Virus record (IMG/VR): IMGVR_UViG_3300030104_006170
DNA: 64,000 nucleotides
Strand: one strand, 5' to 3'
Source: a virus
Lineage: Duplodnaviria; Caudoviricetes
Shown: piece by piece, positions 3,127 through 60,957 of the stretch
How the letters are laid out: each line of letters starts with the position of its first letter
How positions within the stretch are numbered: the first letter of the stretch is position 1
Program-made: the position numbers and the translations under genes
Notes under the pieces: model-generated
What the model was told of the DNA's origin: nothing
Databases searched by the model: none
What the model saw: only the letters and a program-made list of their open reading frames with translations

Positions 3127-3849
3127 ATGATAGTACTAACTGGTTTTTATAACGCTGAACAATATATAGAGCGTTGTCTTGCTACTATTCAGTCTCAAGA
3201 CTATAAAGATTTTACATGTTATATAACACATGACCATTCTACAGATAATTCAGTAAATTTAGTAAAAGAATTTATTAAAGATGACAAAAGATTTGTTCTA
3301 GTTGAGGAGAGTGATAAAAAATTATATCAAGCTGGAAACTTTGATACTGTTATTCGTAATAACCCTAATATAAAAGACAGTGATGTCCTAGTAGAGGTAG
3401 ATGGTGATGACTATCTTCCTGATAGAGGGGTTTTGAGTAGAATTAATAAACTTTACGAGGATGAAAATGTCTGGATTGCTAACGGTAGTTTTAGATATTC
3501 TAGTGGACAACCAGGATTTTCCCAAAAACAAACAGGTTTTGATAACTTGAGACAGGTTAGGTTTACAGCTTCTCATATTAGAACTTGGCGTGCATTTTTA
3601 TGGAGAAATATAAAAGAAGAAGACTTACGTGATGAAAATGGTGATTACTGGCAGTGGAGTGGTGATTTGTGTTTTATGTACCCAATGTTAGAAATGTCAG
3701 GAGAAGAACATTATAGATTTATGAATGAGGTAAATTACGTATATAACGAAACCAACCCAATAAATGAACACAAAATAGATATGACGATGGTTAATAACCA
3801 CGCATCAAGAATAAGAAGTAAAAAACCATATAAAAAATTAAAAATATGA
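3127..3849 (+). CDS. GT2 glycosyltransferase
   Basis: FYNAEQYIERCL, DHSTDNS, VDGDD (DxD). Confidence 0.85.
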   Translation: MIVLTGFYNAEQYIERCLATIQSQDYKDFTCYITHDHSTDNSVNLVKEFIKDDKRFVLVEESDKKLYQAGNFDTVIRNNPNIKDSDVLVEVDGDDYLPDRGVLSRINKLYEDENVWIANGSFRYSSGQPGFSQKQTGFDNLRQVRFTASHIRTWRAFLWRNIKEEDLRDENGDYWQWSGDLCFMYPMLEMSGEEHYRFMNEVNYVYNETNPINEHKIDMTMVNNHASRIRSKKPYKKLKI

Positions 3850-5147
3850 AAAAAATAGATAGTATATTACCAACACTGTTAAATTATTTACAGGAAAATA
3901 AACCAAAATACTTATACAACCAATCCTTTGTGCCTGGTGAAAGTCAAGTACTATATTCAGGACCTTACTGGGATGAGGAAGAAATTATGGCAGCCATTAA
4001 AACTTTTATAGAAGGTAAGTGGGTAGTTGCTGGAGAAAATGTAAATAAATTTGAACGTGCTTTTGGTAGAGTTTTTGGTGCAAAATTTGTACAAATGGTA
4101 AATTCTGGTAGTTCAGCTAATTTAGTTCTAATATCGGCTCTAAAAAAATATTTTGGTTGGGAGGATGGTGACGAAGTCATAGTTTCTCCCGTTGGATTCC
4201 CAACAACTATATCTGTTTTGGTGCAGAATGGTTTAAAACCAGTTTTTATAGATATAGAGTATGAAACACTTAACTTTGACATTACAAAAATAGAAGAAAA
4301 GATAACCCCTAAAACTAAAGCTATTTTTGTTTCTCCTGTCCTGGGTAATGTTCCTGACATGGACTTTTTAACTGAATTATGTAAAAAACACGACATAAGA
4401 TTAATTGGTGATAGTTGTGATAGTATTGGGTCTAAATGGGATGGTAAACACTTAAGTGAATATTACGAAGCGTGGACATCTTCTTTTTATCCTGCACACC
4501 ACATATCAACAGGAGAAGGTGGAGCTGTATGTACTAACATAGCACCATTAAAAAGATTATTTACTAGTTTTGCTTGGTGGGGTAGAGATTGTTATTGTGT
4601 TGGTTCTGCTAATTTATTATCGTGTGGTACTTGTGGTAAAAGATTCGATAAATGGTTAGATTCTTATGACGGAATAATTGACCACAAATATGTTTTTACT
4701 AATATGGGTTATAACCTAAAACCTATGGATTTACAAGGTTCTATTGGACTTATTCAGTTAAAGAAATTTGAGGAGATTGACAACAATAGAAAAAGAAGTA
4801 AAAATACCATAGAATCTATATTTTTAAAATATGTTGATGGGATTAAGGGTGTATCTATGTTACCTAAAGCTGACACTTGTTGGTTTGGTACTCCTTTTAT
4901 TTGTGATAATAAACAATTAAAAGATAAACTAGTTGCTTTTCTAGAAGAGAATAAAATACAAACTAGAAATTACTTTGCTGGAAACATACTAATGCACCCA
5001 GGTTATAAACATTTAGATGATTTAAATAAGTACCCAAACGCTAATACAGTTTTAGACAAAGTATTTTTTGTGGGGGCAGCACCACATTACACAGAAGAAG
5101 TTTTTGATTATATAGAAAGTATATTTGTTAATAAATGGGAAAATTAA
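3846..5147 (+). CDS. rfbH: E1-type (RfbH/DdhC-like) NDP-4-keto-6-deoxyhexose 3-dehydratase, DegT/DnrJ fold
   Basis: VNSGSSANL, SFYPAHHISTGEGG (His in place of the Schiff-base Lys), GRDCYC...CGTCGKRF Cys cluster, QTRNYFAGNI. Confidence 0.85.
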   Translation: MKKIDSILPTLLNYLQENKPKYLYNQSFVPGESQVLYSGPYWDEEEIMAAIKTFIEGKWVVAGENVNKFERAFGRVFGAKFVQMVNSGSSANLVLISALKKYFGWEDGDEVIVSPVGFPTTISVLVQNGLKPVFIDIEYETLNFDITKIEEKITPKTKAIFVSPVLGNVPDMDFLTELCKKHDIRLIGDSCDSIGSKWDGKHLSEYYEAWTSSFYPAHHISTGEGGAVCTNIAPLKRLFTSFAWWGRDCYCVGSANLLSCGTCGKRFDKWLDSYDGIIDHKYVFTNMGYNLKPMDLQGSIGLIQLKKFEEIDNNRKRSKNTIESIFLKYVDGIKGVSMLPKADTCWFGTPFICDNKQLKDKLVAFLEENKIQTRNYFAGNILMHPGYKHLDDLNKYPNANTVLDKVFFVGAAPHYTEEVFDYIESIFVNKWEN

Positions 5148-6541
5148 AAGTTTTAGTATTAGGTGATGGTTTACTAGGTTCGGAAATTGTTAAACAAACC
5201 GAATGGGACTATATTTCTAGAAAGAAAGATGGTTTTGATATTACTGATATGGAAACTTATCATTTACTAACAAATGTAGAATTTGGTGCTATACAACATT
5301 GTAAATATGATATTATTCTTAATTGTATTGCAAATACAGACACTTACAGTACTGATAAAGATTTACACTGGAAAGTTAATTACGAAGGTTTATCTAATCT
5401 AATTAAATTTTGTAATGACTGGAAAGTAAAATTAGTTCACATATCCACAGACTATGTTTATTCTGGTTCTGATACAGAGGCTACAGAAAATACCGTACCT
5501 GTTCACTGTAACAACTGGTATGGTTACACTAAGTTGTTAGGTGATGGTTTGGTTCAACTAAACTCAAATAATTACCTTTTATGTAGGTGTACTCACAAAC
5601 CTAAACCATTTCCTTATGATGGTGCTTGGATTGACCAGGTTGGTAATTTTGACTATGTCTCTAACATCTCAAAACTTATCATAGATATGATAACCAATAA
5701 TTTAAGTGGTTTATATAATGTGGGTACTGAAACTAAAACAATATATGAACTGGCTTCCGAAACAAGAAAAGTTAAAAAAATATATGCACCACAACAAGTA
5801 CCTAAAAATCTTTCTATGAATTTAGATAAATTACATAAAGGTTTAAATAAACCATTTTTTTCCATAGCTATACCAACTTATGGATACAATGGAAGAGGGG
5901 TTGAGTTTTTAGATTTTAGTTTAGAAATTATAAGTAAACAAACTTTTAAAGACTTTGAAGTTGTGTTATCAGACCATAGTGAAGATGATACTATAAAAGA
6001 GGTTTACGATAAGTGGGCTGACAAGTTAAATATCAAATATTTTAGGAATTCTAAAGGTAGGGGTATCATATCTCCTAATATAAATAACGCTATGAAGTTA
6101 TGTAACGGTAAATGGATTAAAGTTTTATTCCAAGACGATTTCCTATATAACGAAAACTCTTTAGAACTACAACACGAATTACTAAACGCTCAACCAAACA
6201 TAAGTTGGGTTATGACTAAATTCTATCATAGTAATGACGGTAAGTCGTTTTATAGACTATACAACCCAAGATGGAATAATATGATATGGACTGGAAATAA
6301 TACCATGGGATGTCCTACTGGTATGACCATTAAAAATAAAAATCTAATATTTTTTGACGAAGGTTTAAATTGGTTGATGGACGTAGATTATTACAAACGT
6401 ATGTTTGATTTACATGGTGAACCAACTATATTAGATGAAATAACAGTAGTTAATAGGACTTGGGGTAATAGACTTACTGATACCATACCTCAGTCTTTAA
6501 AAGATAAAGAATTTGAAATGTTAAAACTTAAATATGCTTAA
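5135..6541 (+). CDS. Fusion: RmlD-like NDP-sugar reductase + GT2 glycosyltransferase
   Basis: N-half VLGDGLLG, HISTDYVY, YGYTK; C-half SIAIPTY, LSDHSEDD, LFQDD, WLMDVDYY. Confidence 0.8.
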   Translation: MGKLKVLVLGDGLLGSEIVKQTEWDYISRKKDGFDITDMETYHLLTNVEFGAIQHCKYDIILNCIANTDTYSTDKDLHWKVNYEGLSNLIKFCNDWKVKLVHISTDYVYSGSDTEATENTVPVHCNNWYGYTKLLGDGLVQLNSNNYLLCRCTHKPKPFPYDGAWIDQVGNFDYVSNISKLIIDMITNNLSGLYNVGTETKTIYELASETRKVKKIYAPQQVPKNLSMNLDKLHKGLNKPFFSIAIPTYGYNGRGVEFLDFSLEIISKQTFKDFEVVLSDHSEDDTIKEVYDKWADKLNIKYFRNSKGRGIISPNINNAMKLCNGKWIKVLFQDDFLYNENSLELQHELLNAQPNISWVMTKFYHSNDGKSFYRLYNPRWNNMIWTGNNTMGCPTGMTIKNKNLIFFDEGLNWLMDVDYYKRMFDLHGEPTILDEITVVNRTWGNRLTDTIPQSLKDKEFEMLKLKYA

Positions 6542-7199
6542 TTTAAAAAATGTAACACTTATAGCCCTAAGTTCAATAAAACTAGAAAAAACCATTAAAG
6601 CTTTAGAGTATAGTTGTCGTGGAATTAGTTTTGGTGAGGTTAAATTAGTTTCTGACACAAGACCTGATAATTTACCTGATTTTATCACTCATGAATTTTG
6701 TCCTAAAATGTCCAATATAGATGAATGGAATTACGCTGCGATATATGAGTTACCTAAACATGTGTCTACGGAATTTGCTATGTTAATACATGATGATGGA
6801 TTTGTTGTTAACCCAGAATCTTGGCGTGATGAGTTTTTTGAGTATGATTATATAGGTGCTCCTTACCCACTACCACAAGATAATTTTTCGTATAGAGACA
6901 TAAATGGTAATCTGATAAGAGTTGGTAATAGTGTTTCTTTAAGAAGTAAAAAATTACTAGACTTACCTATAGAATTAGATTTGGAATGGAAAGCTTTTCA
7001 TGGATATTATAATGAAGACGGTTATATTTGTGTAAACTATCGACATAAGTATCTTGAACATGGTATGAAATTTGCTGATATAGACGTTGCCAAATATTTT
7101 TCACACGAAAATATGATGCCTGAGATTCAAGGAATAAAACCTTTTGCTTTCCATAGACACTATGGAACAAACTCTATTTACCCAAACTATGGAAAATAA
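6534..7199 (+). CDS. DUF5672-like putative glycosyltransferase-associated protein
   Basis: LIHDDGFVVNPESW, YDYIGAP, VGNSVSLRSKKLL, NEDGYIC, FSHE, FAFH. Confidence 0.65.
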   Translation: MLNLKNVTLIALSSIKLEKTIKALEYSCRGISFGEVKLVSDTRPDNLPDFITHEFCPKMSNIDEWNYAAIYELPKHVSTEFAMLIHDDGFVVNPESWRDEFFEYDYIGAPYPLPQDNFSYRDINGNLIRVGNSVSLRSKKLLDLPIELDLEWKAFHGYYNEDGYICVNYRHKYLEHGMKFADIDVAKYFSHENMMPEIQGIKPFAFHRHYGTNSIYPNYGK

Positions 7200-7923
7200 A
7201 AAAATACATACTAATTTTGTAGTCGCTAGTGATTACAATTGGTTACCTGAAAATCTAGAGGATTCCTGGGTACACCAATACACAGATAACTATTTAATCT
7301 ATGATAAATTTCATAGATTTGAAGAATCCGATAAAGTTAAACATCAACTAAATGTGGGTCAAAATATTTATGATATGTTTGATTTCATTGTTAGAAATTA
7401 TGATAACTTACCTGAATGTACTTTATTTTGTAGAGCATGTTTATTATGGCCAAAAGATACTGGTACACCTAGATTAGACGATAATGGGAATAGGTTGTCT
7501 AATGGTAATTGTGGGTTAGATAAATTCCATGAGTTGATGAATAACAATACATTTACAGAATTGCATGATTTTGGTCCTGAAGCACACAAAGGTCCTGGAA
7601 GTAAGATGGCTGAAGATGGTGGGTTTTTAGAAATTAATAACAGTTGGTATTTCCACCATGTACCATCTAGACACTTTAACAATACCAATGCTTTTCTACA
7701 GGACGTATTTGTAAATCCAGAATTACCAGAATATATAAGATTTTCACCTGGTGGAAACTATATAATACCTAAACACACTATATTAAAGTATAGTAAAAAC
7801 TTTTATGAACAAATAAGAAAAATACTTAACTGGGATGTTGTTGTTGGTGAAGCACATCTTATTGAGCGTTGTATATATACTTTTTTTACTTGTGACTATG
7901 AGGTAAACGAAAAATATAAATAA
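7189..7923 (+). CDS. DUF3431-like glycan-related protein (start moved to MENKK at 7189)
   Basis: W...Y.IYDK, NVGQN...FIVRNYDNLP..TLF, FSPGGNYIIPK..IL...FY, LIER. Confidence 0.5.
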   Translation: MENKKIHTNFVVASDYNWLPENLEDSWVHQYTDNYLIYDKFHRFEESDKVKHQLNVGQNIYDMFDFIVRNYDNLPECTLFCRACLLWPKDTGTPRLDDNGNRLSNGNCGLDKFHELMNNNTFTELHDFGPEAHKGPGSKMAEDGGFLEINNSWYFHHVPSRHFNNTNAFLQDVFVNPELPEYIRFSPGGNYIIPKHTILKYSKNFYEQIRKILNWDVVVGEAHLIERCIYTFFTCDYEVNEKYK

Positions 7924-8834
7924 TGTCAACAATCAGAGCTTTCATGTTTCACGATGTTAGGGATTTATCACAAACTGAGTACCCTAGCAGATATAATCTA
8001 AGGTCTTTTATAGATAAAAAGGAATTTAACCACCAACTAAACTTTATAAATAAAAATTATAAAATAATAAGTAGTTTGGAGGTGCCTAATTTAAATTTAG
8101 ATGATGGTAATATAAATTATGCTGTTTTAACTTTTGATGATGGGTTGGTCGACCATTTTTATGTTCACCAACAATTAAAAAAACTGAATATTAGTGGTAC
8201 TTTTCTAATACCTACGGCTCCTGTTGTTGAACAAAAAATGATTCACAGTCACACAATACAATTTATTTTAGCTGCGAGAGATGAAAAATTATTAACCAAA
8301 GAAATTTTATTAAACTTTGAGAACTCTTCTGACTTATGGATTAAGTATTCCCACACCAACTGGGTAGACAATTGGTGGACTAAAGAGATGATATTTGTTA
8401 CTAACTTTTTAAGACGGTACAAATCTCCGACTTTTAATAATTACCAGTATACGGAACATCTTTTCCAAAAATACGTTTCTAAAGATATCCATTCTTTCGC
8501 TTCTAACTTTTATCTTAACCCAAACCAAATAGAAGAAATGAGTTACAATAATATGGTTATAGGTGGACATGGTAATTCCTCAGACAATCTTTTACTGGTA
8601 GAAGATATCGAGGCTGATATAAATAGGTCACATTGGTTTGTTGAGCATTTTTCCGATGATTTTGTTTTTTCTTACCCTAATGGTGGTTTTAATCAAGAAA
8701 TAAAAAATACTTTAAAAAAGTATAAATGTAAGTTATCTTATACCGTAGTACCCCAAACCCTAACTTCATTAGATAATATAGACGTTTTAGAGTTTCCTCG
8801 TTACGATTCTCCACAAAGAATACCATTAAAATGA
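7923..8834 (+). CDS. Polysaccharide deacetylase (NodB/CE4 family)
   Basis: MFHDV, LTFDDG, IGGHGNSS, FSYPNG. Confidence 0.85.
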   Translation: MSTIRAFMFHDVRDLSQTEYPSRYNLRSFIDKKEFNHQLNFINKNYKIISSLEVPNLNLDDGNINYAVLTFDDGLVDHFYVHQQLKKLNISGTFLIPTAPVVEQKMIHSHTIQFILAARDEKLLTKEILLNFENSSDLWIKYSHTNWVDNWWTKEMIFVTNFLRRYKSPTFNNYQYTEHLFQKYVSKDIHSFASNFYLNPNQIEEMSYNNMVIGGHGNSSDNLLLVEDIEADINRSHWFVEHFSDDFVFSYPNGGFNQEIKNTLKKYKCKLSYTVVPQTLTSLDNIDVLEFPRYDSPQRIPLK

Positions 8835-9469
8835 AAATAGTTTATTATGGATATCGTGAATGGTCTTTTAAAATATTTAATAAACTTAAAGTAACAGACA
8901 AATATTTAGTCACACATAAAGATTATAGTATTATAGACACAATTAAACCAGACTTGGTTTTTTTTGTTGGGTGGAGCGATATTATACCCCAAGAAATAAT
9001 AGAAAATAATTTATGTGTTTGTTTACACCCATCACCCCTACCCAAATATAGAGGGGGTAGTCCTATACAAAACCAATTATTAAAAAATGAAAAAAATAGT
9101 ATGGTTAGTTTATTTGTTATGGATAAGGGTATTGACACTGGGGACATCCTATTTCAATCACCCATTAGTCTACTTGGTGAGTTAGATGATATTTTTAATG
9201 AAATAGTAAGAGAAGGAATCAAAGGTATTGACTTTATAGTGGACAATTTCCAAGAAATTCCTACTTTTAGAAAAAAGCAAGATTTAGATTCTGGTACTTT
9301 TTTTAATAGATTGAAACCGACTGATAGTGAGTTAAAGGTTGAGGATTTTATTGAGTACGGTCCAGAGTATTTTCATAACAAAATTAGAGGGTTATCTTCA
9401 CCTTACCCTAACGCTTATATAAAGTGTAAAAATGGTGAAAAACTATACATATTAAAAACAAGATATTAA
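8831..9469 (+). CDS. Formyltransferase, probably sugar N-formyltransferase
   Basis: LHPSPLPKYRGGSPIQ, MDKGIDTGDI; 212 aa; inside a sugar cluster. Confidence 0.8.
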   Translation: MKIVYYGYREWSFKIFNKLKVTDKYLVTHKDYSIIDTIKPDLVFFVGWSDIIPQEIIENNLCVCLHPSPLPKYRGGSPIQNQLLKNEKNSMVSLFVMDKGIDTGDILFQSPISLLGELDDIFNEIVREGIKGIDFIVDNFQEIPTFRKKQDLDSGTFFNRLKPTDSELKVEDFIEYGPEYFHNKIRGLSSPYPNAYIKCKNGEKLYILKTRY

Positions 9470-10395
9470 TGAGAAATGAAAAAATATTCATAACAGGTGG
9501 AGCGGGGTTTTTAGGTAGGAATCTCGTTAAAAGATTATATAAAGATAATGAAATAACAGTATATTCTAGAGACGAAGCTAAACATTATTACATGAAAAAA
9601 GATTATCCTTCTGTTAAGTTTGTTGTTGGGGATATAAGAAATAGAGATTTATTAATTAGAAAATCTAAAGGTCATACTGTTGGTATTTTTGCTGCGTCTT
9701 TAAAACAAATTGAGGCGTGTAATGACAATTACGAAGAGGCCGCTAAAACAATTGTAGACGGAGCCTTTAACTCAAGACTAGCAGCTGAACAAAATAATTT
9801 TAAGTCTGCTTGTTTTATTTCCACAGATAAGAGTAGAGCTGCCACAACATTATATGGTGCAATGAAATATGTCGCTGGTGAAGGTTTTGTGGTGGGTGAG
9901 TCTAATTGTAAGTTAACTACAGCTATATATGGAAATGTTACAAACTCTACTGGTTCTATAATACCATTAATTTGGAATTTCATTAATAAAAATGCAATAT
10001 TGTCATTATACGGCACTGAAATGACCAGATTTTTACTAGATGTAGATGATGCTGTAGATTTAATTATGAAGTCACCATCTTACGCTGGGTGTAATTTAAT
10101 TCCTATAGCAAAATCATTTAAGGTTAAAGACTTATTTGATATTTATTCGGAAGAATTTGGTTTACAATATAAAGTTACAGAACCTCGTACTGGTGAAAAA
10201 ATACATGAAATAATGGCATCCAATGAAGAGGTTAGGAGAATGGAATTAATAAAAAATGATGGAATCTATTTATTACACCCACAAAAAGACATACACCAAA
10301 TATCGTTTAAACATGGAGAATATTCCTCCAGAGACCACTGTCTTACTAAAAATGAATTATATAATTATTTAAAATCTAAAAATTTTTACAAATAA
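9469..10395 (+). CDS. PseB/FnlA(CapD)-family UDP-GlcNAc 4,6-dehydratase
   Basis: ITGGAGFLG, YSRDEAK, GDIRN, ISTDK, LYGAMK, YGNV..STGSIIP, MTRF, RTGEKIHE. Confidence 0.85.
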   Translation: MRNEKIFITGGAGFLGRNLVKRLYKDNEITVYSRDEAKHYYMKKDYPSVKFVVGDIRNRDLLIRKSKGHTVGIFAASLKQIEACNDNYEEAAKTIVDGAFNSRLAAEQNNFKSACFISTDKSRAATTLYGAMKYVAGEGFVVGESNCKLTTAIYGNVTNSTGSIIPLIWNFINKNAILSLYGTEMTRFLLDVDDAVDLIMKSPSYAGCNLIPIAKSFKVKDLFDIYSEEFGLQYKVTEPRTGEKIHEIMASNEEVRRMELIKNDGIYLLHPQKDIHQISFKHGEYSSRDHCLTKNELYNYLKSKNFYK

Positions 10396-11105
10396 TGAAA
10401 GTTTTAGTTTTAGGTCATAAAGGTATGTTGGGTCATATGGTATCAAAATACCTACGTGATAATAAGGTAGAGGTTGTCACTAGTGATGTGAGATGGCCAG
10501 AATCCCCTTTTAAACGAGATATTAAATTAGATTATGTTATTAACTGCATTGGTGCTATACCCCAAAGAACCAAAACTTTTGATATAAATTGGCACCTTCC
10601 GATATGGTTAGACTTTAATTCTCCTTGTAGAGTTATTCATCCTGGTACTGATTGTGAAATGGATGACGATGATTATGGTAAATCTAAAAAAACCGCTGCC
10701 GACTTTCTAAACTCAATTGGGACCCAAACTAAAATACTAAAGACTTCTATTATTGGTCCAGAACTAAACAGTAACTCTAGTTTATTGGAGTGGTTTTTAT
10801 CACAAAATGAAGATGTTTTTGGTTATACTAAAGCTATGTGGAATGGGAATACCACACTAGAGTGGGCAAAACAATGTCTTGCCCTTATGACTGTTTGGGA
10901 CGATTATCCAACGGAAACAATATTAGAAGGTCAATGTGTGAGTAAGTATGTATTGTTGGAGACTATTAATGGTGTTTTTGGGAAAGGGTTAACTATAAAT
11001 CCTAAGGAGGATGGTAAGGATAAATGTCTTACAGGTAGAATTAAAACTGACAATATCAAAGAACAATTAGAAGAACTAAAAAAATATTATTATGATAACA
11101 ACTAA
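10395..11105 (+). CDS. RmlD-like NDP-4-keto-6-deoxysugar reductase
   Basis: VLGHKGMLG, IHPGTDC, YGKSK, TSIIGPEL, LLEWFL, WNGNTTLE. Confidence 0.75.
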   Translation: MKVLVLGHKGMLGHMVSKYLRDNKVEVVTSDVRWPESPFKRDIKLDYVINCIGAIPQRTKTFDINWHLPIWLDFNSPCRVIHPGTDCEMDDDDYGKSKKTAADFLNSIGTQTKILKTSIIGPELNSNSSLLEWFLSQNEDVFGYTKAMWNGNTTLEWAKQCLALMTVWDDYPTETILEGQCVSKYVLLETINGVFGKGLTINPKEDGKDKCLTGRIKTDNIKEQLEELKKYYYDNN

Positions 11106-12003
11106 TTTAACGGGTAATTTAGGAAATCACATGTGGCAATATGCTGTTTGTAGAACTATAGCAGAAGAACTAGGGTATGAATGGGGTATTAACCCAACGC
11201 CTAGTCACGATTATTTTAACGGTGCAAATCAAATGGATTTTATGGATGTAGATTTTGGTATGGTGGTAAGTGGTATTGTTAACGAATATCATGAGCCTTG
11301 GAAAACCTACCACCATGTAGACGCTGTAAACATAACAATGTTAAACTCTAGTTTATATGAAATAGATGATAATACCATTTTAATAGGAGATAATGGAGCG
11401 AAAGGTGGTATATATCAATCTGAAGAATATATTAAAGATAGGAAGGATGATATTTTAAAGTGGTTTAAGATAAAAGACAATAAAAAGAAAGAATACAATA
11501 CTAAATTAAATGAACTAGGAGTTACCTTAGATGAAAATACTTGTATTATTAATTTTAGAGGTGGTGAATATAGAGGTATACCTAATGTTTTATTACGTAG
11601 AGAGTATTGGCGAGATTGTGTGAATTACATGTTAACTTTAAATCCAAATATGAATTTTGTGGTAGTTACTGATGACCCACCAACAGCCTCACAATTTATG
11701 CCTTTTCAAATGAAATGTATTCACATAGACGTAGGTTTTGATTATTATTGTGTTAACCAAGCTAAATGGTTAATCATATCCAACTCAACGTTTGGGTGGT
11801 GGGCTGCATGGTTAAATGAAACTTGTAACAAAATTATAGCTCCCAAATATTGGGCAAGACATAATGTTAGTGATGGTTATTGGGCAACAGGTGACGCTTA
11901 CACCTCATGTTTTAATTATATGGATAGAGAAGGTTCTGTATCTGATTTTGAAACTTGTAAATCTGAAGCATTAAATTATTATAAATTAAAAAATATTATT
12001 TAA
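11092..12003 (+). CDS. GT11 alpha-1,2-fucosyltransferase-like protein
   Basis: GNLGNHMWQYA, YQSEEY, INFRGGEY, IISNSTFGWWAAWL, IIAPKYW. Confidence 0.85.
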   Translation: MITTNLTGNLGNHMWQYAVCRTIAEELGYEWGINPTPSHDYFNGANQMDFMDVDFGMVVSGIVNEYHEPWKTYHHVDAVNITMLNSSLYEIDDNTILIGDNGAKGGIYQSEEYIKDRKDDILKWFKIKDNKKKEYNTKLNELGVTLDENTCIINFRGGEYRGIPNVLLRREYWRDCVNYMLTLNPNMNFVVVTDDPPTASQFMPFQMKCIHIDVGFDYYCVNQAKWLIISNSTFGWWAAWLNETCNKIIAPKYWARHNVSDGYWATGDAYTSCFNYMDREGSVSDFETCKSEALNYYKLKNII

Positions 12004-12867
12004 ATGGGAAAAATATATGATTGTTTTAATTTCTTTAATGAGTTAGACATTTTAGAACTAAGATTAAATATTCTCTACGAACATGTAGATTATTTTGTAA
12101 TTGTAGAATCTACAGTTACTCACTCTGGCCAACCTAAACCTTTTTACCTAGAAGAAAATAAGGAACGTTTTTCTAAGTTTTGGGACAAGATTATTAGTTT
12201 TAAAGTATCTGACACACCTGAAGATTTTGTTAACCTTACTAACACAGGATTTTTCGACGCTGAATTAGATAAGGTACACTACTATATCCGTACACAAACT
12301 AATAGGTTTGATAGGCGTACACAAGTAGATTATGGTAGAGATTTTTTTCAAAAAGAATCGGTTAGAAGAGCTCTAGTAAATTGTAATGAAGATGATATAA
12401 TTATTATATCAGATGCTGACGAAATACCAAACCCAGAAATACTTAAAGATTTAAAGTCTCTTTCTTTAGATAATACAATATATTCCCTCTCCCAACCAAT
12501 GTATTCTTATTACTTAAATATGTTAAGTGATTCGGACTGGCACGGTTCAAAAATGGGTCTATATAAAAACGTAAAAGAATTATCTTTTAACGAAATTAGG
12601 GGTGATTCAAACCTAACAACTAAATTGACTAATGGTGGATGGCATTTTAGTTTTATGGGTGGTGAAGAAATGGTGAAAACAAAAATAACATCTTATTCGG
12701 CTAGGGATTTAGTCAATGACCAAGTCCTATCAAGTATTAAGAGTAATATAGAAAATGACCAAGATGTTTTTTTTAGAGGTAAATTAACAAAAGTAAAATT
12801 AGACGAAAGTTTTCCAGAATACGTATTAAATAATATACCATATTATAGTAAAATGATTAAAGAGTAA
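12004..12867 (+). CDS. GT17 (MGAT3-like) beta-1,4-N-acetylglucosaminyltransferase family
   Basis: YDCFNFFNELDILELRL, VDYFVIVES..THSG..KP, ISDADEIP, GGWHFSFMGG. Confidence 0.85.
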   Translation: MGKIYDCFNFFNELDILELRLNILYEHVDYFVIVESTVTHSGQPKPFYLEENKERFSKFWDKIISFKVSDTPEDFVNLTNTGFFDAELDKVHYYIRTQTNRFDRRTQVDYGRDFFQKESVRRALVNCNEDDIIIISDADEIPNPEILKDLKSLSLDNTIYSLSQPMYSYYLNMLSDSDWHGSKMGLYKNVKELSFNEIRGDSNLTTKLTNGGWHFSFMGGEEMVKTKITSYSARDLVNDQVLSSIKSNIENDQDVFFRGKLTKVKLDESFPEYVLNNIPYYSKMIKE

Positions 12868-12871
12868 CTCT

Positions 12872-13648
12872 ATGATTATTAGTAAAATAATGGGTGGGCT
12901 AGGTAATCAAATGTTTCAGTATGCTTACGCAAGAAATTTATCTAATTTAAATAACACTAACTTTTATCTAGATACCTCGTTTTATAATAATCAAATTGGT
13001 GTGACCCCTAGAGTGTTTAGTTTAAATTCTTTCCCTAAAGCTTCTATAAATATAGAAATTCCACAAGTAGAAAGTATCCAAGTCATTAATGACAACTTTA
13101 AATATGATTCCACCAAATTAATTAAGGGTACCTGTCTATTACAAGGTTATTGGCAAAGCGAAAAATACTTTAATGACTCTAAAAATTTAGTACTAGAGGA
13201 CTTTTCTCCTGATGAAACCAATAGAAAAAAGTTACTTAAAAAATACCCTAAAGTAGGGGGTAATACAATATCTTTACATATTAGAAGAACAGATTATTTA
13301 ACATCTAATGGTTATCATCCAGTACAAACTATTGATTATTACAATAAAGCTATAGATATTTTAGGTACATATGAAAATATTTTTATATTTTCAGATGATA
13401 TAGACTGGTGTAAAAATAATTTAAATTTCAAAAATATGGTTTTTGTTGAGGGTAATAAAGATATAGAAGATTTATGGTTAATGTCTTTATGTAGAAATAA
13501 CATTATAGTTAATTCTTCTTTTAGTTGGTGGGGTGCTTATTTAAATAAGAATGTCGATAAAATAGTTATTGCTCCATCTAAGTGGTTTGGTGATGGTGTT
13601 ACCTTAAATACTGAGGACATACTACCAAAAAAATGGATTAAACTTTAA
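12872..13648 (+). CDS. GT11 alpha-1,2-fucosyltransferase
   Basis: GGLGNQMFQYA, GYWQSEKYF, LHIRRTDY, IFSDDIDWC, NSSFSWWGAYL. Confidence 0.92.
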   Translation: MIISKIMGGLGNQMFQYAYARNLSNLNNTNFYLDTSFYNNQIGVTPRVFSLNSFPKASINIEIPQVESIQVINDNFKYDSTKLIKGTCLLQGYWQSEKYFNDSKNLVLEDFSPDETNRKKLLKKYPKVGGNTISLHIRRTDYLTSNGYHPVQTIDYYNKAIDILGTYENIFIFSDDIDWCKNNLNFKNMVFVEGNKDIEDLWLMSLCRNNIIVNSSFSWWGAYLNKNVDKIVIAPSKWFGDGVTLNTEDILPKKWIKL

Positions 13649-13652
13649 TAAT

Positions 13653-14636
13653 ATGGGTACGAATAAAACAGCTTTAATAACAGGGATAAATGGTCAAGAT
13701 GGTTCATATCTTGCTGAACTACTTTTAAAAAAAGGTTACAATGTTTGGGGTATATTAAAAAGAAATTCTGTTTCTGAGAACCAGACAGCTAGAATACCGG
13801 AAAACATATACCAAAAACTTAATTTAGTTTATGGTGATTTATTAGACATCCCATCTTTAATTAATGTATTACAGAAATCTAAACCAGATGAGGTATATAA
13901 TTTGGCGGCACAATCACATGTGAGAATAAGTTTTGACCAACCAATTTACACAACCCAGGTCACAGGATTAGGTACTCTAAATTTATTAGAAGCTATAAGA
14001 TTAACCAACCCCAACATTAAAATATATCAGGCTAGTTCTTCTGAAATGTTTGGCAATAATATAGATAGTGATGGATACCAAAGAGAAACCACACCAATGG
14101 AACCGGTATCACCATATGGGTGTGCAAAAGTTTTTTCTTACAATATTTGTAAAAACTATAGAAACTCATATAATATGTTTATTTCAAATGGGATTCTATT
14201 TAACCATGAATCACCAAGGAGAGGTACAAACTTTGTAACTAATAAAGTCGTTAAAGAAGCTGTAAAAATAAAATTAGGGTTATCTAATGAACTTAAATTA
14301 GGTAATATGAACGCCAGTAGAGATTGGGGACACGCTAAAGATTATGTAAAAGCGATGTGGTTAATGTTACAAGAAGACTCCCCGGCTGACTACGTATGTT
14401 CTACAGGGATTTCACATACGGTTAAAGATTTGGTAGAATATGTATTTGGTTCATTAGAATTGGATTGGGAAAAATATGTGAGACAGGATAAAAAGTATTT
14501 ACGACCTGAAGAATTAGAACATTTAAAAGGCGACTGTTCAAAAATAAAATCAGAGTTGGGTTGGTCACCTAACTATAATTTCGAATCTATGTTAGATGAG
14601 ATGATTGAATATTGGTTAGAGTATTATGAAAAATGA
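13653..14636 (+). CDS. gmd: GDP-mannose 4,6-dehydratase
   Basis: ALITGINGQDGSYLAELLL, YNLAAQSHV..SF, YQASSSEMFG, NGILFNHESPRRG..FVT.K, RDWGHAKDYV. Confidence 0.97.
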   Translation: MGTNKTALITGINGQDGSYLAELLLKKGYNVWGILKRNSVSENQTARIPENIYQKLNLVYGDLLDIPSLINVLQKSKPDEVYNLAAQSHVRISFDQPIYTTQVTGLGTLNLLEAIRLTNPNIKIYQASSSEMFGNNIDSDGYQRETTPMEPVSPYGCAKVFSYNICKNYRNSYNMFISNGILFNHESPRRGTNFVTNKVVKEAVKIKLGLSNELKLGNMNASRDWGHAKDYVKAMWLMLQEDSPADYVCSTGISHTVKDLVEYVFGSLELDWEKYVRQDKKYLRPEELEHLKGDCSKIKSELGWSPNYNFESMLDEMIEYWLEYYEK

Positions 14637-15576
14637 TATGGAAATAATGGATGTTGGTGAGGTACATGTGAAAAGACCTAATTTATTAGTTACTGGTGGT
14701 CATGGTTTGGTCGGTAGCCAAATTAGTTCTGGTATAAAAATAGGTAGTATTGTAGATTTAAGAAATTCACAGATTTGTGATGCTTTTTTTAATGACACAA
14801 AACCCATAAACGTTGTTCATTGTGCAGCTAAAGTAGGTGGTTTAGGTGGTAATATGAATCTAAAGGGTGAGTTTTTTTACGACAATATCATGATAAATAC
14901 AAATGTGATAGAATCCTGTAGAAAATATGGGGTAAAAAAATTAGTTTGTTTTTTATCAACTTGTGTTTTTCCAGATAATGTAGAATACCCATTAACAGAA
15001 AAAAAGATACATCTAGGTGAACCCCATAACTCTAATTATCCGTATGCATATGCTAAAAGAATGGCAGATATACAAATTAGAGCATATAGAGAGCAATACG
15101 ATTTAAATTATGTATCTGTAATACCAACTAATATATATGGACCAAACGATAACTTTAACTTAGAAAATGGACATGTAATACCTTCATTAATCCACAAATG
15201 TTATTTAGCCAAAAAAAATAATACCCCTTTTAAAATATGGGGAAGTGGTAAACCACTTAGAGAATTTATATACTCAGAAGATGTTGCTAAGCTAACTGAA
15301 TGGGTTTTAGAGAATTATAATGAAGAAGAACCAATTATATTATCTACGTCTGAAGAAATATCTATTAGAGATGTTGTTAAATTAATAATTAAACATATGG
15401 ACTTTAAAGGTGATGTCATATGGGAAGATGAGAAACCTGATGGACAATTTAGGAAACCTAGTGATAATAGTAAATTAATGTCTTATTTACCAGATTTTAA
15501 ATTCACTAGTTTAGATGAAGGATTAAAAAAAACAGTTGATTGGTTTGTATCAAACTATAAATTATGTAGAAAATAA
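14626..15576 (+). CDS. fcl: GDP-L-fucose synthase (GDP-4-keto-6-deoxymannose epimerase/reductase)
   Basis: AAKVGGL..N, FLSTCVFP, YAYAKR, PTNIYGPNDNF, HVIPSLI, WGSGKPLREF, KPDGQ.RK. Confidence 0.95.
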   Translation: MKNDMEIMDVGEVHVKRPNLLVTGGHGLVGSQISSGIKIGSIVDLRNSQICDAFFNDTKPINVVHCAAKVGGLGGNMNLKGEFFYDNIMINTNVIESCRKYGVKKLVCFLSTCVFPDNVEYPLTEKKIHLGEPHNSNYPYAYAKRMADIQIRAYREQYDLNYVSVIPTNIYGPNDNFNLENGHVIPSLIHKCYLAKKNNTPFKIWGSGKPLREFIYSEDVAKLTEWVLENYNEEEPIILSTSEEISIRDVVKLIIKHMDFKGDVIWEDEKPDGQFRKPSDNSKLMSYLPDFKFTSLDEGLKKTVDWFVSNYKLCRK

Positions 15577-15586
15577 ATAATTAAAA

Positions 15587-16330
15587 ATGGGAAGAAGAAG
15601 TAAAAAATTAAGTAGAGAGGAACAAATGGAGGTAGAAGAATGGATTTACCAAAATAATACCGAAGAAAAAAGACTTTCGGACACTATGACGATTAGTGTT
15701 AAGTGTAAAACAGAAAACCAAAAATCTCTGGTTAACGCTATAAAAGAAAAAGAGGTCATAATTTGTTCTGGACCAGCTGGTACAGGTAAAACTTATTTAG
15801 CGTGTGCTGAAGCACTAAAACTAATCAAACGTTACGCTAAATATAAAAAAATTGTAATTGTAAAATCTGTAACCACATTAAAGAATGAGGAAATTGGGTT
15901 TCTTAAAGGTGGTTTAAGAGAAAAAATGGAACCTTTTATGTTTTCATTTGTACATAATTTTGAGAAGTTGGTGGGACAAGCTATAACTTCTAGACTTAGA
16001 GAATTAAAAACTATAGAAGAATTACCTATTGCTTATATGAGAGGTATTAATTTGGATAGGTCTATTATTATTATAGATGAGGCTCAAAATATATCACAAG
16101 AAAATATAAGAACTATTATGACTAGGTTAGGTAAAGATTCTAAAATGATATTCTTGGGTGATGAAAGACAACAAGATTCTAAAGGACATAATGGACTGAC
16201 CTTTTTAATGGACCACTTCCAAGACATAGAGGAGATTGGGTGTGTTCAGTTTAATAAATCAGACGTGGTAAGAAACCCATTAATAGCTAAAATAGAAAGG
16301 GTTTTTGATTCTTTACATATTGGTAGATAA
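15587..16330 (+). CDS. phoH: PhoH-family ATPase
   Basis: GPAGTGKTYLA, GFLKG, PIAYMRG, IIDEAQN, TRLG..SK..FLGD..Q.D, DVVRNPLI. Confidence 0.95.
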   Translation: MGRRSKKLSREEQMEVEEWIYQNNTEEKRLSDTMTISVKCKTENQKSLVNAIKEKEVIICSGPAGTGKTYLACAEALKLIKRYAKYKKIVIVKSVTTLKNEEIGFLKGGLREKMEPFMFSFVHNFEKLVGQAITSRLRELKTIEELPIAYMRGINLDRSIIIIDEAQNISQENIRTIMTRLGKDSKMIFLGDERQQDSKGHNGLTFLMDHFQDIEEIGCVQFNKSDVVRNPLIAKIERVFDSLHIGR

Positions 16331-19774: not shown

Positions 19775-19779
19775 TAAGA

Positions 19780-24285: not shown

Positions 24286-25779
24286 ATGATACACAGGTCA
24301 TATTTTAGCAAAAACAATACTCTACTTGCAAATAACGAAGTTAATACTGGGAGAAATCCAGTAACACAACTTTTTTACGGTAAGGGTGTAACTAATAGTT
24401 GTAGATTTACTGGTTCTGCTGACCACATATGTAATGGACAAACAGGATTTACTAAAAATTTAGATACTGGATTTAGTAGATTTATTTTTAATTTAGATTT
24501 AGAAGATTTAAGAGAAAAAATAAACAGTTGTTGTATACCCGCATTAACATCTTTAACTCACACCATAAAAATGACTAATACTTCTCATTTTGATGATACT
24601 TTGATGAATGATAAAATATTAGTTGATGGTACCAGACGTGCTACATCTTTTACTTTGATGTTATTTAAAGCTACTACTGGTAGCTCTTGGTCAGAAGGTG
24701 TTGGTTATGATTATCAAGTTGCTGATGGTATGTTTGCACCGGAATTTGATTTAACTCATTCTACAAGACCCAGTAATTGGTTTTCCTCGACAACTCTAAG
24801 TATGTGGGCTATTCCAGGTACCTATGATAATAATGATAATACAACTTATACTGTTTTAGACACGCAAGTTTTTGACCAAGGTAATGAAAATATAGAATTT
24901 AATAGTTTAGCACTTAATACGGAGATAAATAATTTACTAATTTTACCAACAGCAACTACTTCAGCTAACACATATGGGATTGCTTTTATTCCAGCTTTTG
25001 AAAATATAACCGGTTTAACAGAGGCTTATTCTGTTGGTTTTTTTAGTAGACACACTCAAACATTTTATGAACCTTTTTTAGAAACTACTTTTGATGATGT
25101 TATAAATGATGATAGGGGAGATTTTCATTTAGGGGTTAATAATAGATTATTTTTGTACGCTTATGACCATAATGGTCATCCAATATGTTTTGATTTATTA
25201 CCTACTGTAGATATTAAGGACTGTAATGAAAGTACGGTTGCTACTTACACCGCAACCCAATTAACTTGTGGTGTTTATTATATACCACTATCTTTAACTA
25301 GTGTAGCACAAAGTCCACCAGTTATATATACCGATACTTGGTCTAATTTATTTGTGGGTGGTATATCACAACCTAACGTAACAAATGAATTTATAATTTA
25401 TAATAATAATTTAAGTATTGGTTCAACCGCGGGTGAACCTAAAATATATGGTTATTCTGTATCTGGAATTAAAGAAGATGAAAAAGTAACTAATGGAGAA
25501 ACAAGAAAAGTATTTGTTTCAACCAGAGTTCCTTACACTGTAGATGAACAAGTTTTAGTCGATAATTTGCAATATCGTCTCTATGTAACCCAAGGTACCA
25601 CTCAAGTGGAGGTAATTCCTTGGACACCCATTAACAAGTCATTTACACACAATTATTTTATGTTAGATACAGGATGGATGATTCCTAATGAATATCACCT
25701 AGATATCAAAGCAACTTCTAACCAACAAGTAGATATTTATAGGAAAGTAATAAAATTTCAAGTAATTAATCAATTATGA
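24286..25779 (+). CDS. hypothetical virion structural protein (beta/Ser-Thr rich)
   Basis: Late motif upstream; S/T/aromatic-rich; follows baseplate gene. Confidence 0.55.
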   Translation: MIHRSYFSKNNTLLANNEVNTGRNPVTQLFYGKGVTNSCRFTGSADHICNGQTGFTKNLDTGFSRFIFNLDLEDLREKINSCCIPALTSLTHTIKMTNTSHFDDTLMNDKILVDGTRRATSFTLMLFKATTGSSWSEGVGYDYQVADGMFAPEFDLTHSTRPSNWFSSTTLSMWAIPGTYDNNDNTTYTVLDTQVFDQGNENIEFNSLALNTEINNLLILPTATTSANTYGIAFIPAFENITGLTEAYSVGFFSRHTQTFYEPFLETTFDDVINDDRGDFHLGVNNRLFLYAYDHNGHPICFDLLPTVDIKDCNESTVATYTATQLTCGVYYIPLSLTSVAQSPPVIYTDTWSNLFVGGISQPNVTNEFIIYNNNLSIGSTAGEPKIYGYSVSGIKEDEKVTNGETRKVFVSTRVPYTVDEQVLVDNLQYRLYVTQGTTQVEVIPWTPINKSFTHNYFMLDTGWMIPNEYHLDIKATSNQQVDIYRKVIKFQVINQL

Positions 25780-26261
25780 AAAAAATAAGAATATCTGAAA
25801 GTGAACTAGTAGATTTAATAGAAAAACTAGTTAAAGAAAATCTAAGTAATGGTACTGGATTTGACTTTGGTATGTTGGGTACACCTACATCAAAGTATAA
25901 GGATTTATACGAAGATGAAGATATGGAAGAGGAAAAAGAGTTAGATGAAGATGAAGTTAATGTGGATACAGCACAGACTGGTGATAAAACATTAAATGTT
26001 AATGTAATGAAACAAACTAACCAATCTGACTGGATGGGTGAAAATAAAATTACTGAATCTCAGTTAGTTAGAAGGTTATCAAAAAAATTACATGAAGCAG
26101 AAGGAAAAGGATGTGCTGAATCAGAAGGTGGTTCTGGTTGTATTAAAAAAAGAGGAGACGGCTGGGTTATATTAAATAACAAAAAAGGTGGTGTCTGGAG
26201 AAAATGTACTAGTGAAAAAGATTGTCAAGAACAATTAGACGCTTTTCACGCTAATAAATAA
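25776..26261 (+). CDS. putative head-internal protein with class-A leader
   Basis: N-terminus MKKIRISESELVDLIEKLVKE; acidic linker; small Cys-containing C-terminal domain. Confidence 0.55.
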   Translation: MKKIRISESELVDLIEKLVKENLSNGTGFDFGMLGTPTSKYKDLYEDEDMEEEKELDEDEVNVDTAQTGDKTLNVNVMKQTNQSDWMGENKITESQLVRRLSKKLHEAEGKGCAESEGGSGCIKKRGDGWVILNNKKGGVWRKCTSEKDCQEQLDAFHANK

Positions 26262-26281
26262 AACTTAAAAAATTAAAAATT

Positions 26282-26347
26282 ATGAAATGTGATTGTCAAA
26301 TATGTAAGTGTGGTACTAAATGTGACTGTACTTGTTGTGACTGTTAG
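26282..26347 (+). CDS. metallothionein-like 21-aa peptide MKCDCQICKCGTKCDCTCCDC (absent from ORF track)
   Basis: 9 Cys in 21 aa in CxC/CC patterns; A-rich leader with A at -3; followed by terminator. Confidence 0.7.
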   Translation: MKCDCQICKCGTKCDCTCCDC

Positions 26348-26377
26348 ATAACAGTTAATTAAAAAATAAAGATATAA

Positions 26378-26403
26378 AAAAACCACTCAAAAGAGTGGTT
26401 TTT
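26378..26403. terminator. bidirectional intrinsic terminator
   Basis: AAAAACCACTC-AAAA-GAGTGGTTTTT between convergent operons. Confidence 0.85.
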
Positions 26404-26408
26404 GTTTT

Positions 26409-26699
26409 TTAGATATCTTCCTCATCATAATCATATTCATGAGTTACAGTTGTTCTAGTTGGTTCTGGTTCTTCTTCCACAACAACCTCATCTTTCGGTG
26501 AGAAATTTTCTGCAGCTGTAAAACCAAGACCTGCCATTACAATCCATTGTAAAGACTCGAATAAATTATTGTCAATTGTGAAATCCCAAAAAAGATTTGC
26601 TGTGTAACCAATTAACATAAATAGAAGACATACGAAAGTAACAAATCTTTTACTAGAGACTTTACCTTCACTACTTAACATGTTTTTAAAGAAGTTCAT
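26409..26699 (-). CDS. two-TM membrane protein, holin-like (start moved to MNFFK at 26699)
   Basis: SSKRF followed by two hydrophobic helices and an acidic tail; late motif at 26712-26719 supports the later start. Confidence 0.5.
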   Translation of the reverse strand: MNFFKNMLSSEGKVSSKRFVTFVCLLFMLIGYTANLFWDFTIDNNLFESLQWIVMAGLGFTAAENFSPKDEVVVEEEPEPTRTTVTHEYDYDEEDI

Positions 26700-26711
26700 A
26701 AGCGTTTTTAT

Positions 26712-26719
26712 TATAAATA
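26712..26719 (-). promoter_or_regulatory. candidate phage late promoter TATTTATA
   Basis: Between capsid terminator and holin-like start. Confidence 0.6.
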
Positions 26720-26728
26720 TCAGTGCAT

Positions 26729-26755
26729 AAAAAAAAGCCCTCATAAAGAGGGCTT
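26729..26755 (-). terminator. intrinsic terminator after major capsid gene
   Basis: AAGCCCTC-ATAAA-GAGGGCTT with U-tract on the minus strand. Confidence 0.85.
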
Positions 26756-47060: not shown

Positions 47061-47071
47061 TATTTTTTTCT

Positions 47072-47079
47072 TATCTTTG
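47072..47079 (+). promoter_or_regulatory. Bacteroidota-type -7 promoter (TAnnTTTG), 4 nt before ATG
   Basis: TATCTTTG-TAGT-ATG; TTCG 20 nt upstream. Confidence 0.7.
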
Positions 47080-47083
47080 TAGT

Positions 47084-58598: not shown

Positions 58599-58629
58599 TT
58601 GTTTAAATCATTTAATTTTATTATCTTTG
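58599..58629 (+). promoter_or_regulatory. Bacteroidota-type -33/-7 promoter, 4 nt before ATG
   Basis: TTG-N20-TATCTTTG-TAGT-ATG. Confidence 0.72.
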
Positions 58630-58633
58630 TAGT

Positions 58634-60921: not shown

Positions 60922-60953
60922 TTTGGTCATTTAATTTAAATTTATTATCTTTG
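60922..60953 (+). promoter_or_regulatory. Bacteroidota-type -33/-7 promoter, 4 nt before ATG
   Basis: TTTG-N20-TATCTTTG-TAGT-ATG. Confidence 0.75.
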
Positions 60954-60957
60954 TAGT

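Follow-up and report, generated by a model that had tools for sequence, protein, structure and literature searches.

A predicted family of metallothionein-like nine-cysteine peptides encoded by uncultured marine phages

The nine-Cys beta-domain of vertebrate metallothionein and the fungal Cu(I) metallothioneins of the Neurospora crassa type each form one small domain that carries 7–9 Cys in CxC, CxxC, and CC arrangements. These domains lack aromatic residues, wrap one cluster each (M(II)3S9 or Cu(I)6), and are comparable in size to, or slightly larger than, the peptide described here. Plant metallothioneins (PF01439; Ec-1, 2KAK) have 45–85 residues in two or three Cys domains joined by linkers, and Ec-1 also uses His. 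Among prokaryotes, SmtA and BmtA (PF02069) bind zinc or cadmium. In marine cyanobacteria, BmtA has an important part in the zinc economy (PMC9337993). Polycysteine short ORFs are also documented in a different role, as Cys-responsive operon attenuators in mycobacteria (bioRxiv 10.1101/834739). In the literature, we found no description of a phage-encoded metallothionein or of the nine-Cys peptide family reported here.

We analyzed a stretch of 64,000 nucleotides, referred to as the window, from the IMG/VR virus record IMGVR_UViG_3300030104_006170 (Caudoviricetes). A nine-Cys peptide gene of 21 codons plus TAG is located on its plus strand at 26282..26347, with the ATG at 26282 and the TAG at 26345–26347. 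The translation, MKCDCQICKCGTKCDCTCCDC, contains Cys at 9 of its 21 residues (43%), at positions 3, 5, 8, 10, 14, 16, 18, 19, and 21, and these form a CxCxxCxC half and a CxCxCCxC half of four and five Cys, respectively, connected by the linker G-T-K. The ORF is placed within a 147-nt gap between the stop of a plus-strand gene for a 161-aa protein on one side and the end of a convergent minus-strand gene on the other. Its ATG starts 20 nt past the 161-aa gene, and a bidirectional terminator begins 30 nt past its TAG. The original prediction had described a 21-aa ORF with 9 of 21 residues Cys, preceded by an A-rich leader, too short for the ORF track, and immediately followed by a terminator. 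The first three of these points were confirmed, and so was the presence of the hairpin; only "immediately" was slightly generous. The ORF was listed by the ORF finder at a min_aa of 20 only, and it would therefore be missed by ordinary gene callers. The maximum number of in-frame TGY codons per 19-codon stretch of the window was nine, reached at the peptide locus alone, and elsewhere the number did not exceed seven. In 100 dinucleotide-preserving shuffles of the window the maximum was 4–7, and none reached nine. A second Cys-codon-dense stretch, at 35428 (+), was rejected; it is antisense to a terminase-like gene and contains stops. A small palindrome, ACTGTT-AGAT-AACAGT, covers the stop codon of the peptide gene at 26337–26352 (+); the closest relatives retain it, whereas the wider family does not.

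The window belongs to a divergent T4-like phage of about 31% G+C that encodes a gp23-type capsid protein and a gp21-type prohead protease. Among named phages it is closest to Flavobacterium phage immuto and Microcystis phage Mel-JY01, with capsid identities of about 41–43%. A Shine-Dalgarno (SD)-like motif was detected in only 2 of 69 window genes, and the leaders average 50% A. The sequence TTATCTTTGTAGT abuts the ATG of three plus-strand genes (47071–47083, 58621–58633, and 60945–60957) and contains what we take to be the Bacteroidota -7 promoter element, TAnnTTTG; this arrangement suggests that early mRNAs are possibly leaderless or near-leaderless. Since the leaders are SD-poor with about 50% A and TTATCTTTGTAGT is TAnnTTTG-like, the host is likely to be a member of the Bacteroidota. 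At 3846–16330 (+), this T4-like phage carries a sizeable glycan-synthesis island, in which successive sugar-modifying genes encode an aminotransferase together with four or more nucleotide-sugar epimerase/dehydratase-like proteins (phrog_3139, phrog_540). The original prediction had assigned the ORF to the end of a late structural operon. This assignment was not borne out: the three large upstream genes (702, 599, and 497 aa) had no family or cultured-phage match, and further upstream lies the cluster of nucleotide-sugar enzymes.

The gene directly upstream of the peptide gene encodes the 161-aa acidic protein (25776..26261, +; ORF list and translation), which had no Pfam, PHROG, or NCBIfam match. 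A promoter-like motif, ATATTTATA, is located 35 nt upstream of that gene at 25733..25741 (+). ATATTTATA occurs 15 times in the window against 5.05 expected, a three-fold excess, and none of 100 shuffles reached 15. It is found upstream of many window genes in the orientation of the gene, head and tail module genes included; sites are present, for example, at 19779, 24262, and 25733 (+) and at 26720, 35920, 40322, and 41081 (-). ATATTTATA is probably a phage late-type promoter, distinct from TATAAATA of T4, and its copy at 25733 is the probable start signal of a two-gene unit that ends in the peptide gene. Late expression of the peptide gene is suggested solely by this motif, common to it and the head and tail genes. 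The A-rich leader between the two genes, aacttaaaaaattaaaaatt (26262..26281, +), contains no SD motif and would act as the translation-initiation region of the peptide gene. The context of the peptide ATG scored 8.2 bits in a start-context matrix made from 65 window genes, a value that exceeds 78% of true starts and is matched by 0.27% of other ATGs.

Downstream of the peptide gene, a bidirectional intrinsic terminator (26378..26413) was called on both strands by an independent scan. It has a stem of 11 pairs (26378–26403) with a 4-nt loop and T-runs on both sides, and it is common to the peptide unit and the convergent minus-strand gene. A terminator is also kept in relatives, where a second clade has a different stem sequence (the two stems being CCACTC/GAGTGG and GGTCC/GGACC). 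The promoter, the 161-aa gene, the peptide gene, and the terminator, in this order, probably constitute one co-transcribed unit. The product of the convergent gene (26409–26744, -) is a small protein that combines two hydrophobic segments with a very acidic tail; ATATTTATA at 26712–26720 suggests that the true start of the gene is an internal ATG near 26699, giving about 96 aa. This gene is conserved beside the peptide gene only within the clade of the window. Contigs from 4 marine metatranscriptome runs covered only the neighboring capsid gene, together with one terminator fragment of a relative, and have no bearing on expression of the ORF; a few sequence words of the region also occur in 16 marine metatranscriptome runs.

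We collected 24 loci from IMG/VR with the 161-aa neighbor as the query, so that ascertainment was independent of the peptide. The peptide ORF was present at the same place, with all nine Cys kept, in 9 of the 24. Synonymous changes were found among these sequences (TGT/TGC, GGT/GGC, ACT/ACA/ACG, and GAT/GAC), and the replacements were conservative (D/E, K/E, I/V, and T/S/N). The stop codon is TAG or TAA, and a terminator then follows. The arrangement CxCxxCxCxxxCxCxCCxC was kept in all 10 anchor-ascertained sequences, which comprise eight distinct core DNA sequences. Across these eight cores, 3, 2, and 12 sites were variable at the first, second, and third codon positions, respectively, and pairwise dN was 0.02–0.125, with dS ranging from 0.12 to saturation (>2). 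The median dN/dS was 0.09 in the Cys frame versus 1.51 in the overlapping +2 frame, and the +3 frame was closed. Conserved Cys together with synonymous variation in related phages was the outcome that the original prediction had called for, and the relatives showed it. The comparison shows that the peptide ORF is a real coding gene under strong purifying selection. In the other 15 loci, which do not have the ORF, the upstream gene reaches the terminator after 10–45 nt. The peptide gene is therefore a clean presence/absence polymorphism at one site among close relatives. The N-terminal domain of the 161-aa protein has two paralogues on one 53.8-kb viral contig, IMGVR_UViG_3300025141_009405 (L005, L014), one at each end, and the peptide gene follows just one of them.

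These data also bear on the reading that the locus is no gene at all but a tract of TGT-rich simple sequence or a structured RNA at the 3' end of the operon. In favor of this reading, the +2 frame was likewise open in 132 of 136 family members, although only because TGT-rich DNA rarely yields stops there. The 154-nt intergenic RNA (26262–26415) folds better than its shuffles (z = -3.8), a signal due mostly to the terminator hairpin, which is the strongest one in the fold, and Rfam matches were all below threshold and driven by the terminator. On the other hand, substitutions gather at third positions of the Cys frame, with the difference in dN/dS between the two frames given above, the start and stop positions are fixed, and no shuffle reached nine in-frame Cys codons. 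Simple-sequence noise, which the original prediction had named as its possible refutation, is excluded by the shuffles and by the dN/dS of the Cys frame. We consider a non-coding origin extremely unlikely, and the comparative data effectively rule it out.

Pattern scans of IMG/VR and marine metagenomes yielded a family with at least 136 distinct nucleotide contexts and at least 116 distinct peptides of 20–23 aa. A degenerate DNA pattern retrieved 26 viral contigs. A Cys-only pattern retrieved more divergent viral members and one bacterial member amid much poly-Cys and TGC-repeat noise, and a pattern with Gly and a stop gave at least 120 matches in marine metagenomes, Tara and JGI marine samples included. 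Since metagenome sequences are interrelated, these context counts exceed the number of independent events. The family follows the pattern M-x(0-3)-CxCxxCxCGxxCxCxCCxC-stop, with the consensus MKCNCxxCxCGTSCxCxCCxC. In 133 of 136 contexts, a Met codon, which the patterns did not demand, stands 0–3 codons ahead of the first Cys. Two scans used a pattern without a stop, and in these a stop came right after the last Cys in every match that was not of low complexity, and Gly followed the fourth Cys in most matches of the scans that did not demand Gly. Invariance of the nine Cys in the alignment of 113 sequences is partly imposed by the search pattern, and the bias-free set is that of the ten anchor-ascertained sequences. 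Besides Cys, constraint was seen at Gly11, inside the CxC pairs, where the residue is acidic or amide (D/N/E), and at position 4 (K/Q/T).

Most family members are on marine viral and metagenomic contigs, with many unrelated neighbors. When 50,697 cultured or deposited phage records were searched with the region by megablast and with the peptide by tblastn and blastn, no meaningful match emerged, the blastn matches being noise from the A-rich leader, and no cultured phage carrying the peptide gene was identified among these records. The only true bacterial member among the matches listed, within an under-sampled bacterial distribution, is at L166:3695-3922 (-) on the Cryomorphaceae MAG contig JBELHE010000051.1, in a normal chromosomal neighborhood. 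There, the peptide gene abuts (TAA then ATG) a 53-aa membrane ORF, which itself overlaps a VOC/glyoxalase-family gene. Flavodoxin and DUF2237 genes are also located near this copy. It may have been transferred from a phage, because the Cryomorphaceae genome was the only match in 401 Flavobacteriales genomes. The peptide gene thus belongs to a large unannotated family whose 20–23-residue products are metallothionein-like in sequence and which many uncultured marine phages carry.

The gene neighborhoods of the family are highly diverse. The neighbors seen in the window are common to only about 17 of 120 members, and most other members are placed between same-strand genes of unrelated families. 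We scanned about 45 neighbor proteins, consisting of cluster representatives, single neighbors of family members, and the genes around the bacterial copy. Matches included a COG2509-like flavoprotein, GP88, a PD-(D/E)XK nuclease, glycosyltransferases, a YadA-like repeat/fiber protein, a SegE-type GIY-YIG homing endonuclease, and many unknowns. None of the proteins scanned was a metal transporter, sensor, or metalloregulator. Dozens of unrelated phage contexts carry the peptide gene as a free-standing accessory cassette. The original prediction had proposed that the peptide supplies metal to Cys/His-rich virion proteins such as the spike tip, and this proposal found no support, the neighbors across about 120 contexts being unrelated and none of those scanned a metal gene.

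Anti-host micro-proteins of phages typically travel as stand-alone accessory genes. The peptide might be read as a metal-stabilized mini-domain that binds a macromolecule of the host or of the phage. It could, for instance, inhibit a host enzyme or defense protein, or serve as a small virion or assembly factor; its Cys would then hold a structural metal, and its function would be other than metal homeostasis. The stand-alone placement in unrelated phage contexts with no metal genes nearby is compatible with such a role, and so is the constraint on the non-Cys positions, namely Gly after the fourth Cys, the acidic or amide interior of the CxC pairs, and K/Q/T at position 4. However, once the Cys and Gly are fixed, a chain of 21 residues has hardly any surface left for specific recognition, its variable positions accept many polar residues, net charge across the family ranges from -4 to +3, and no constant partner gene was found across the contexts scanned. 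We consider this reading unlikely.

A terminator-like site was found within 130 nt after the peptide gene in 48 of 127 members versus 85 of 919 control ORF ends. The peptide gene thus often, but not always, closes a transcription unit. A short ORF dense in Cys codons and followed by a terminator, as in the window, together with this excess of terminators over control ORF ends, is what would be expected of a Cys-sensing leader peptide modeled on the mycobacterial polycysteine ORFs. In such a leader, a shortage of Cys-tRNA would halt ribosomes at the nine Cys codons and thereby alter the folding of the downstream terminator. Several observations do not fit such a leader. In the window there is no same-strand gene past the terminator, the next gene being convergent, and the same is true in the window's clade. 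No nearby terminator was found in 79 of 127 members, the gene that follows the bacterial copy begins at the stop codon, and where a terminator is present its distance from the stop varies widely, from 8 to 59 nt. No alternative antiterminator pairing was evident in the minimum-free-energy fold or in the hairpin-terminator arrangement of the flavoprotein lineage described below. Moreover, the spacing of the Cys, the Gly, the start, and the stop are conserved with a dN/dS of 0.09, indicating that the constraint is on the peptide and not merely on its codon content. A regulatory leader is therefore very improbable.

In one lineage of the family (30 loci, 66–98% identity), a gene for a 431-aa flavoprotein is located about 115 nt downstream of the peptide gene. 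The flavoprotein has a Rossmann motif of the pyridine-nucleotide-disulphide-oxidoreductase type without a CxxC redox pair, and no solved-structure relative was detectable by sequence. A conserved hairpin and a strong terminator are present between the two genes, and the peptide and flavoprotein genes are therefore separate transcription units. The flavoprotein was dropped as a candidate functional partner because the terminator separates the genes and the CxxC pair is lacking. The hairpin of this lineage, found 11–28 nt past the peptide stop, has an invariant 9-nt loop, ATTCATAGC, and is present at L293:120-234 and at about 30 other loci (for example L236, L264, L287, L310, L329, and L352). 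Its stems covary clearly (CTG/CAG, CCG/CGG, TCG/CGA, and TAG/CTA), and the hairpin is a conserved structured element. It is followed by an A-rich spacer, the strong terminator, CGTATATT, and then the flavoprotein gene.

The proximity of this flavoprotein gene and the extreme Cys content of the peptide would both suit a metal-free thiol-rich peptide, acting as a scavenger of oxidants or electrophiles, as a disulfide-knotted peptide, or as a RiPP precursor. Against this, the flavoprotein belongs to a separate transcription unit and has no CxxC, and no flavoprotein gene is present beside the ORF of the window. The peptides have an odd number of Cys (nine), no signal peptide, and no leader/core organization, with only 0–3 residues before the first Cys, and no maturase-type gene recurred among the neighbors scanned. 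A metal-free role is, in our estimation, quite improbable.

We then compared the peptides with the sequence-level part of the operational definition of metallothioneins given by Kagi and co-workers. This definition asks for a low mass in a single short chain, a very high Cys content with conserved CxC, CxxC, and CC motifs, and absent or scarce aromatic residues and His, and beyond the sequence for a high content of metal held in metal-thiolate clusters. The chain has 21 aa in the window and 20–23 aa in the 113 members, and nearly every second residue of the window peptide is Cys in such motifs. Across the 113 peptides, Cys accounts for 44.9% of the composition, aromatic residues and His make up 0.04% each of the non-initiator residues, and the rest is N, K, T, D, S, G, and E. 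Profile searches gave resemblance rather than assignment. The window peptide had no match in Pfam at E up to 0.1 or up to 10. When the 113 members were searched against Pfam, only PF01439 (Metallothio_2) was matched, by 28 of 113 members with a best E of 0.33, below significance, and PF02069 gave no match at E up to 10. NCBIfam returned nothing for the family, and the sole PDB match of the family profile was the wheat Ec-1 metallothionein 2KAK at E=5, also below significance. The curated thresholds of named metallothionein families (PF01439, PF02069, PF00131, and others) were not reached. Thus the original designation of the ORF as a metallothionein stands as far as composition and motifs are concerned, and falls short where a significant match to a named family is concerned. 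Judged by its sequence, the nine-Cys peptide can be called metallothionein-like, with resemblance to the named families but not membership in them, and from its chemistry metal binding is likely.

Taken as a whole, the observations are best explained by a genuine translated micro-gene whose reduced thiolates wrap a small metal-thiolate cluster, an account that we consider reasonably probable. In this account, transcription would begin at the ATATTTATA-type promoter at 25733, pass through the 161-aa gene, and end at the bidirectional terminator at 26378–26413. Translation would start from the A-rich leader without an SD motif, as it presumably does for the other genes of the phage. The predicted product is a 21-residue cytoplasmic peptide with nine invariant Cys in two CxC-rich halves around a Gly turn, and the reduced thiolates of the two halves may wrap a small metal-thiolate cluster, plausibly as a hairpin that encloses one cluster. 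If the nine-Cys domains of metallothioneins are a guide, nine thiolates would hold about three Zn(II) or Cd(II) (M(II)3S9) or four to six Cu(I). We infer, then, that the peptide is translated, that it is made late, and that it binds metal with a stoichiometry of this order. As a guess, the benefit to the phage during infection could be buffering or hoarding of trace metals or protection of thiols. A bolder version, which we put forward tentatively and regard as possible, is that this mobile cassette of marine phages is the smallest ribosomal metallothionein yet seen (20–23 residues, nine Cys), made in infection to capture or buffer scarce or toxic Zn, Cd, Co, or Cu.

If the mobile-cassette reading is true, abundant ocean bacteria have their trace-metal economy rewired directly by viral infection. 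Should the peptide bind metal, it would represent a new and exceptionally small metallothionein family, the first that is mainly phage-borne, which is widespread in ocean viromes yet hidden from gene callers that ignore ORFs of fewer than about 30 codons. Metal binding would also connect viral infection with trace-metal cycling in seawater in a testable way, and would give metallobiology a minimal nine-thiolate scaffold that is easily synthesized. Whatever its function, the family shows how much conserved coding sequence sits under annotation thresholds in phage genomes.

Among known systems, the plant-type metallothioneins resemble the phage peptide in the order C-x-C-G-x-x-C-x-C followed by a further C-x-C, and both are Cys-rich with polar spacers and without aromatic residues. 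Unlike the multi-domain plant proteins, the phage peptide consists of one 21-residue unit that has a CC pair and ends in Cys, and E values of 0.33 and 5 do not imply common descent. The vertebrate beta-domain and the Neurospora crassa-type metallothioneins differ in Cys spacing, have no sequence relationship to the peptide, and are eukaryotic and metal-regulated, whereas the phage peptide is phage-borne, shorter (20–23 aa), and 43–45% Cys. SmtA and BmtA are, like the phage peptide, small, prokaryotic, and Cys-rich, but they have about 55 residues, His ligands, a zinc-finger-like fold, and control by ArsR/SmtB or Zur, and no regulator accompanies the phage peptide gene. The leaderless polycysteine short ORFs of mycobacteria resemble the phage ORF in being very short, unannotated, packed with Cys codons, and missed by gene callers. 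The mycobacterial ORFs form the first cistron of an operon and work by stalling ribosomes, and their peptide sequence is unimportant (bioRxiv 10.1101/834739), whereas the phage ORF is usually a last or internal cistron whose amino-acid pattern is under strong purifying selection.
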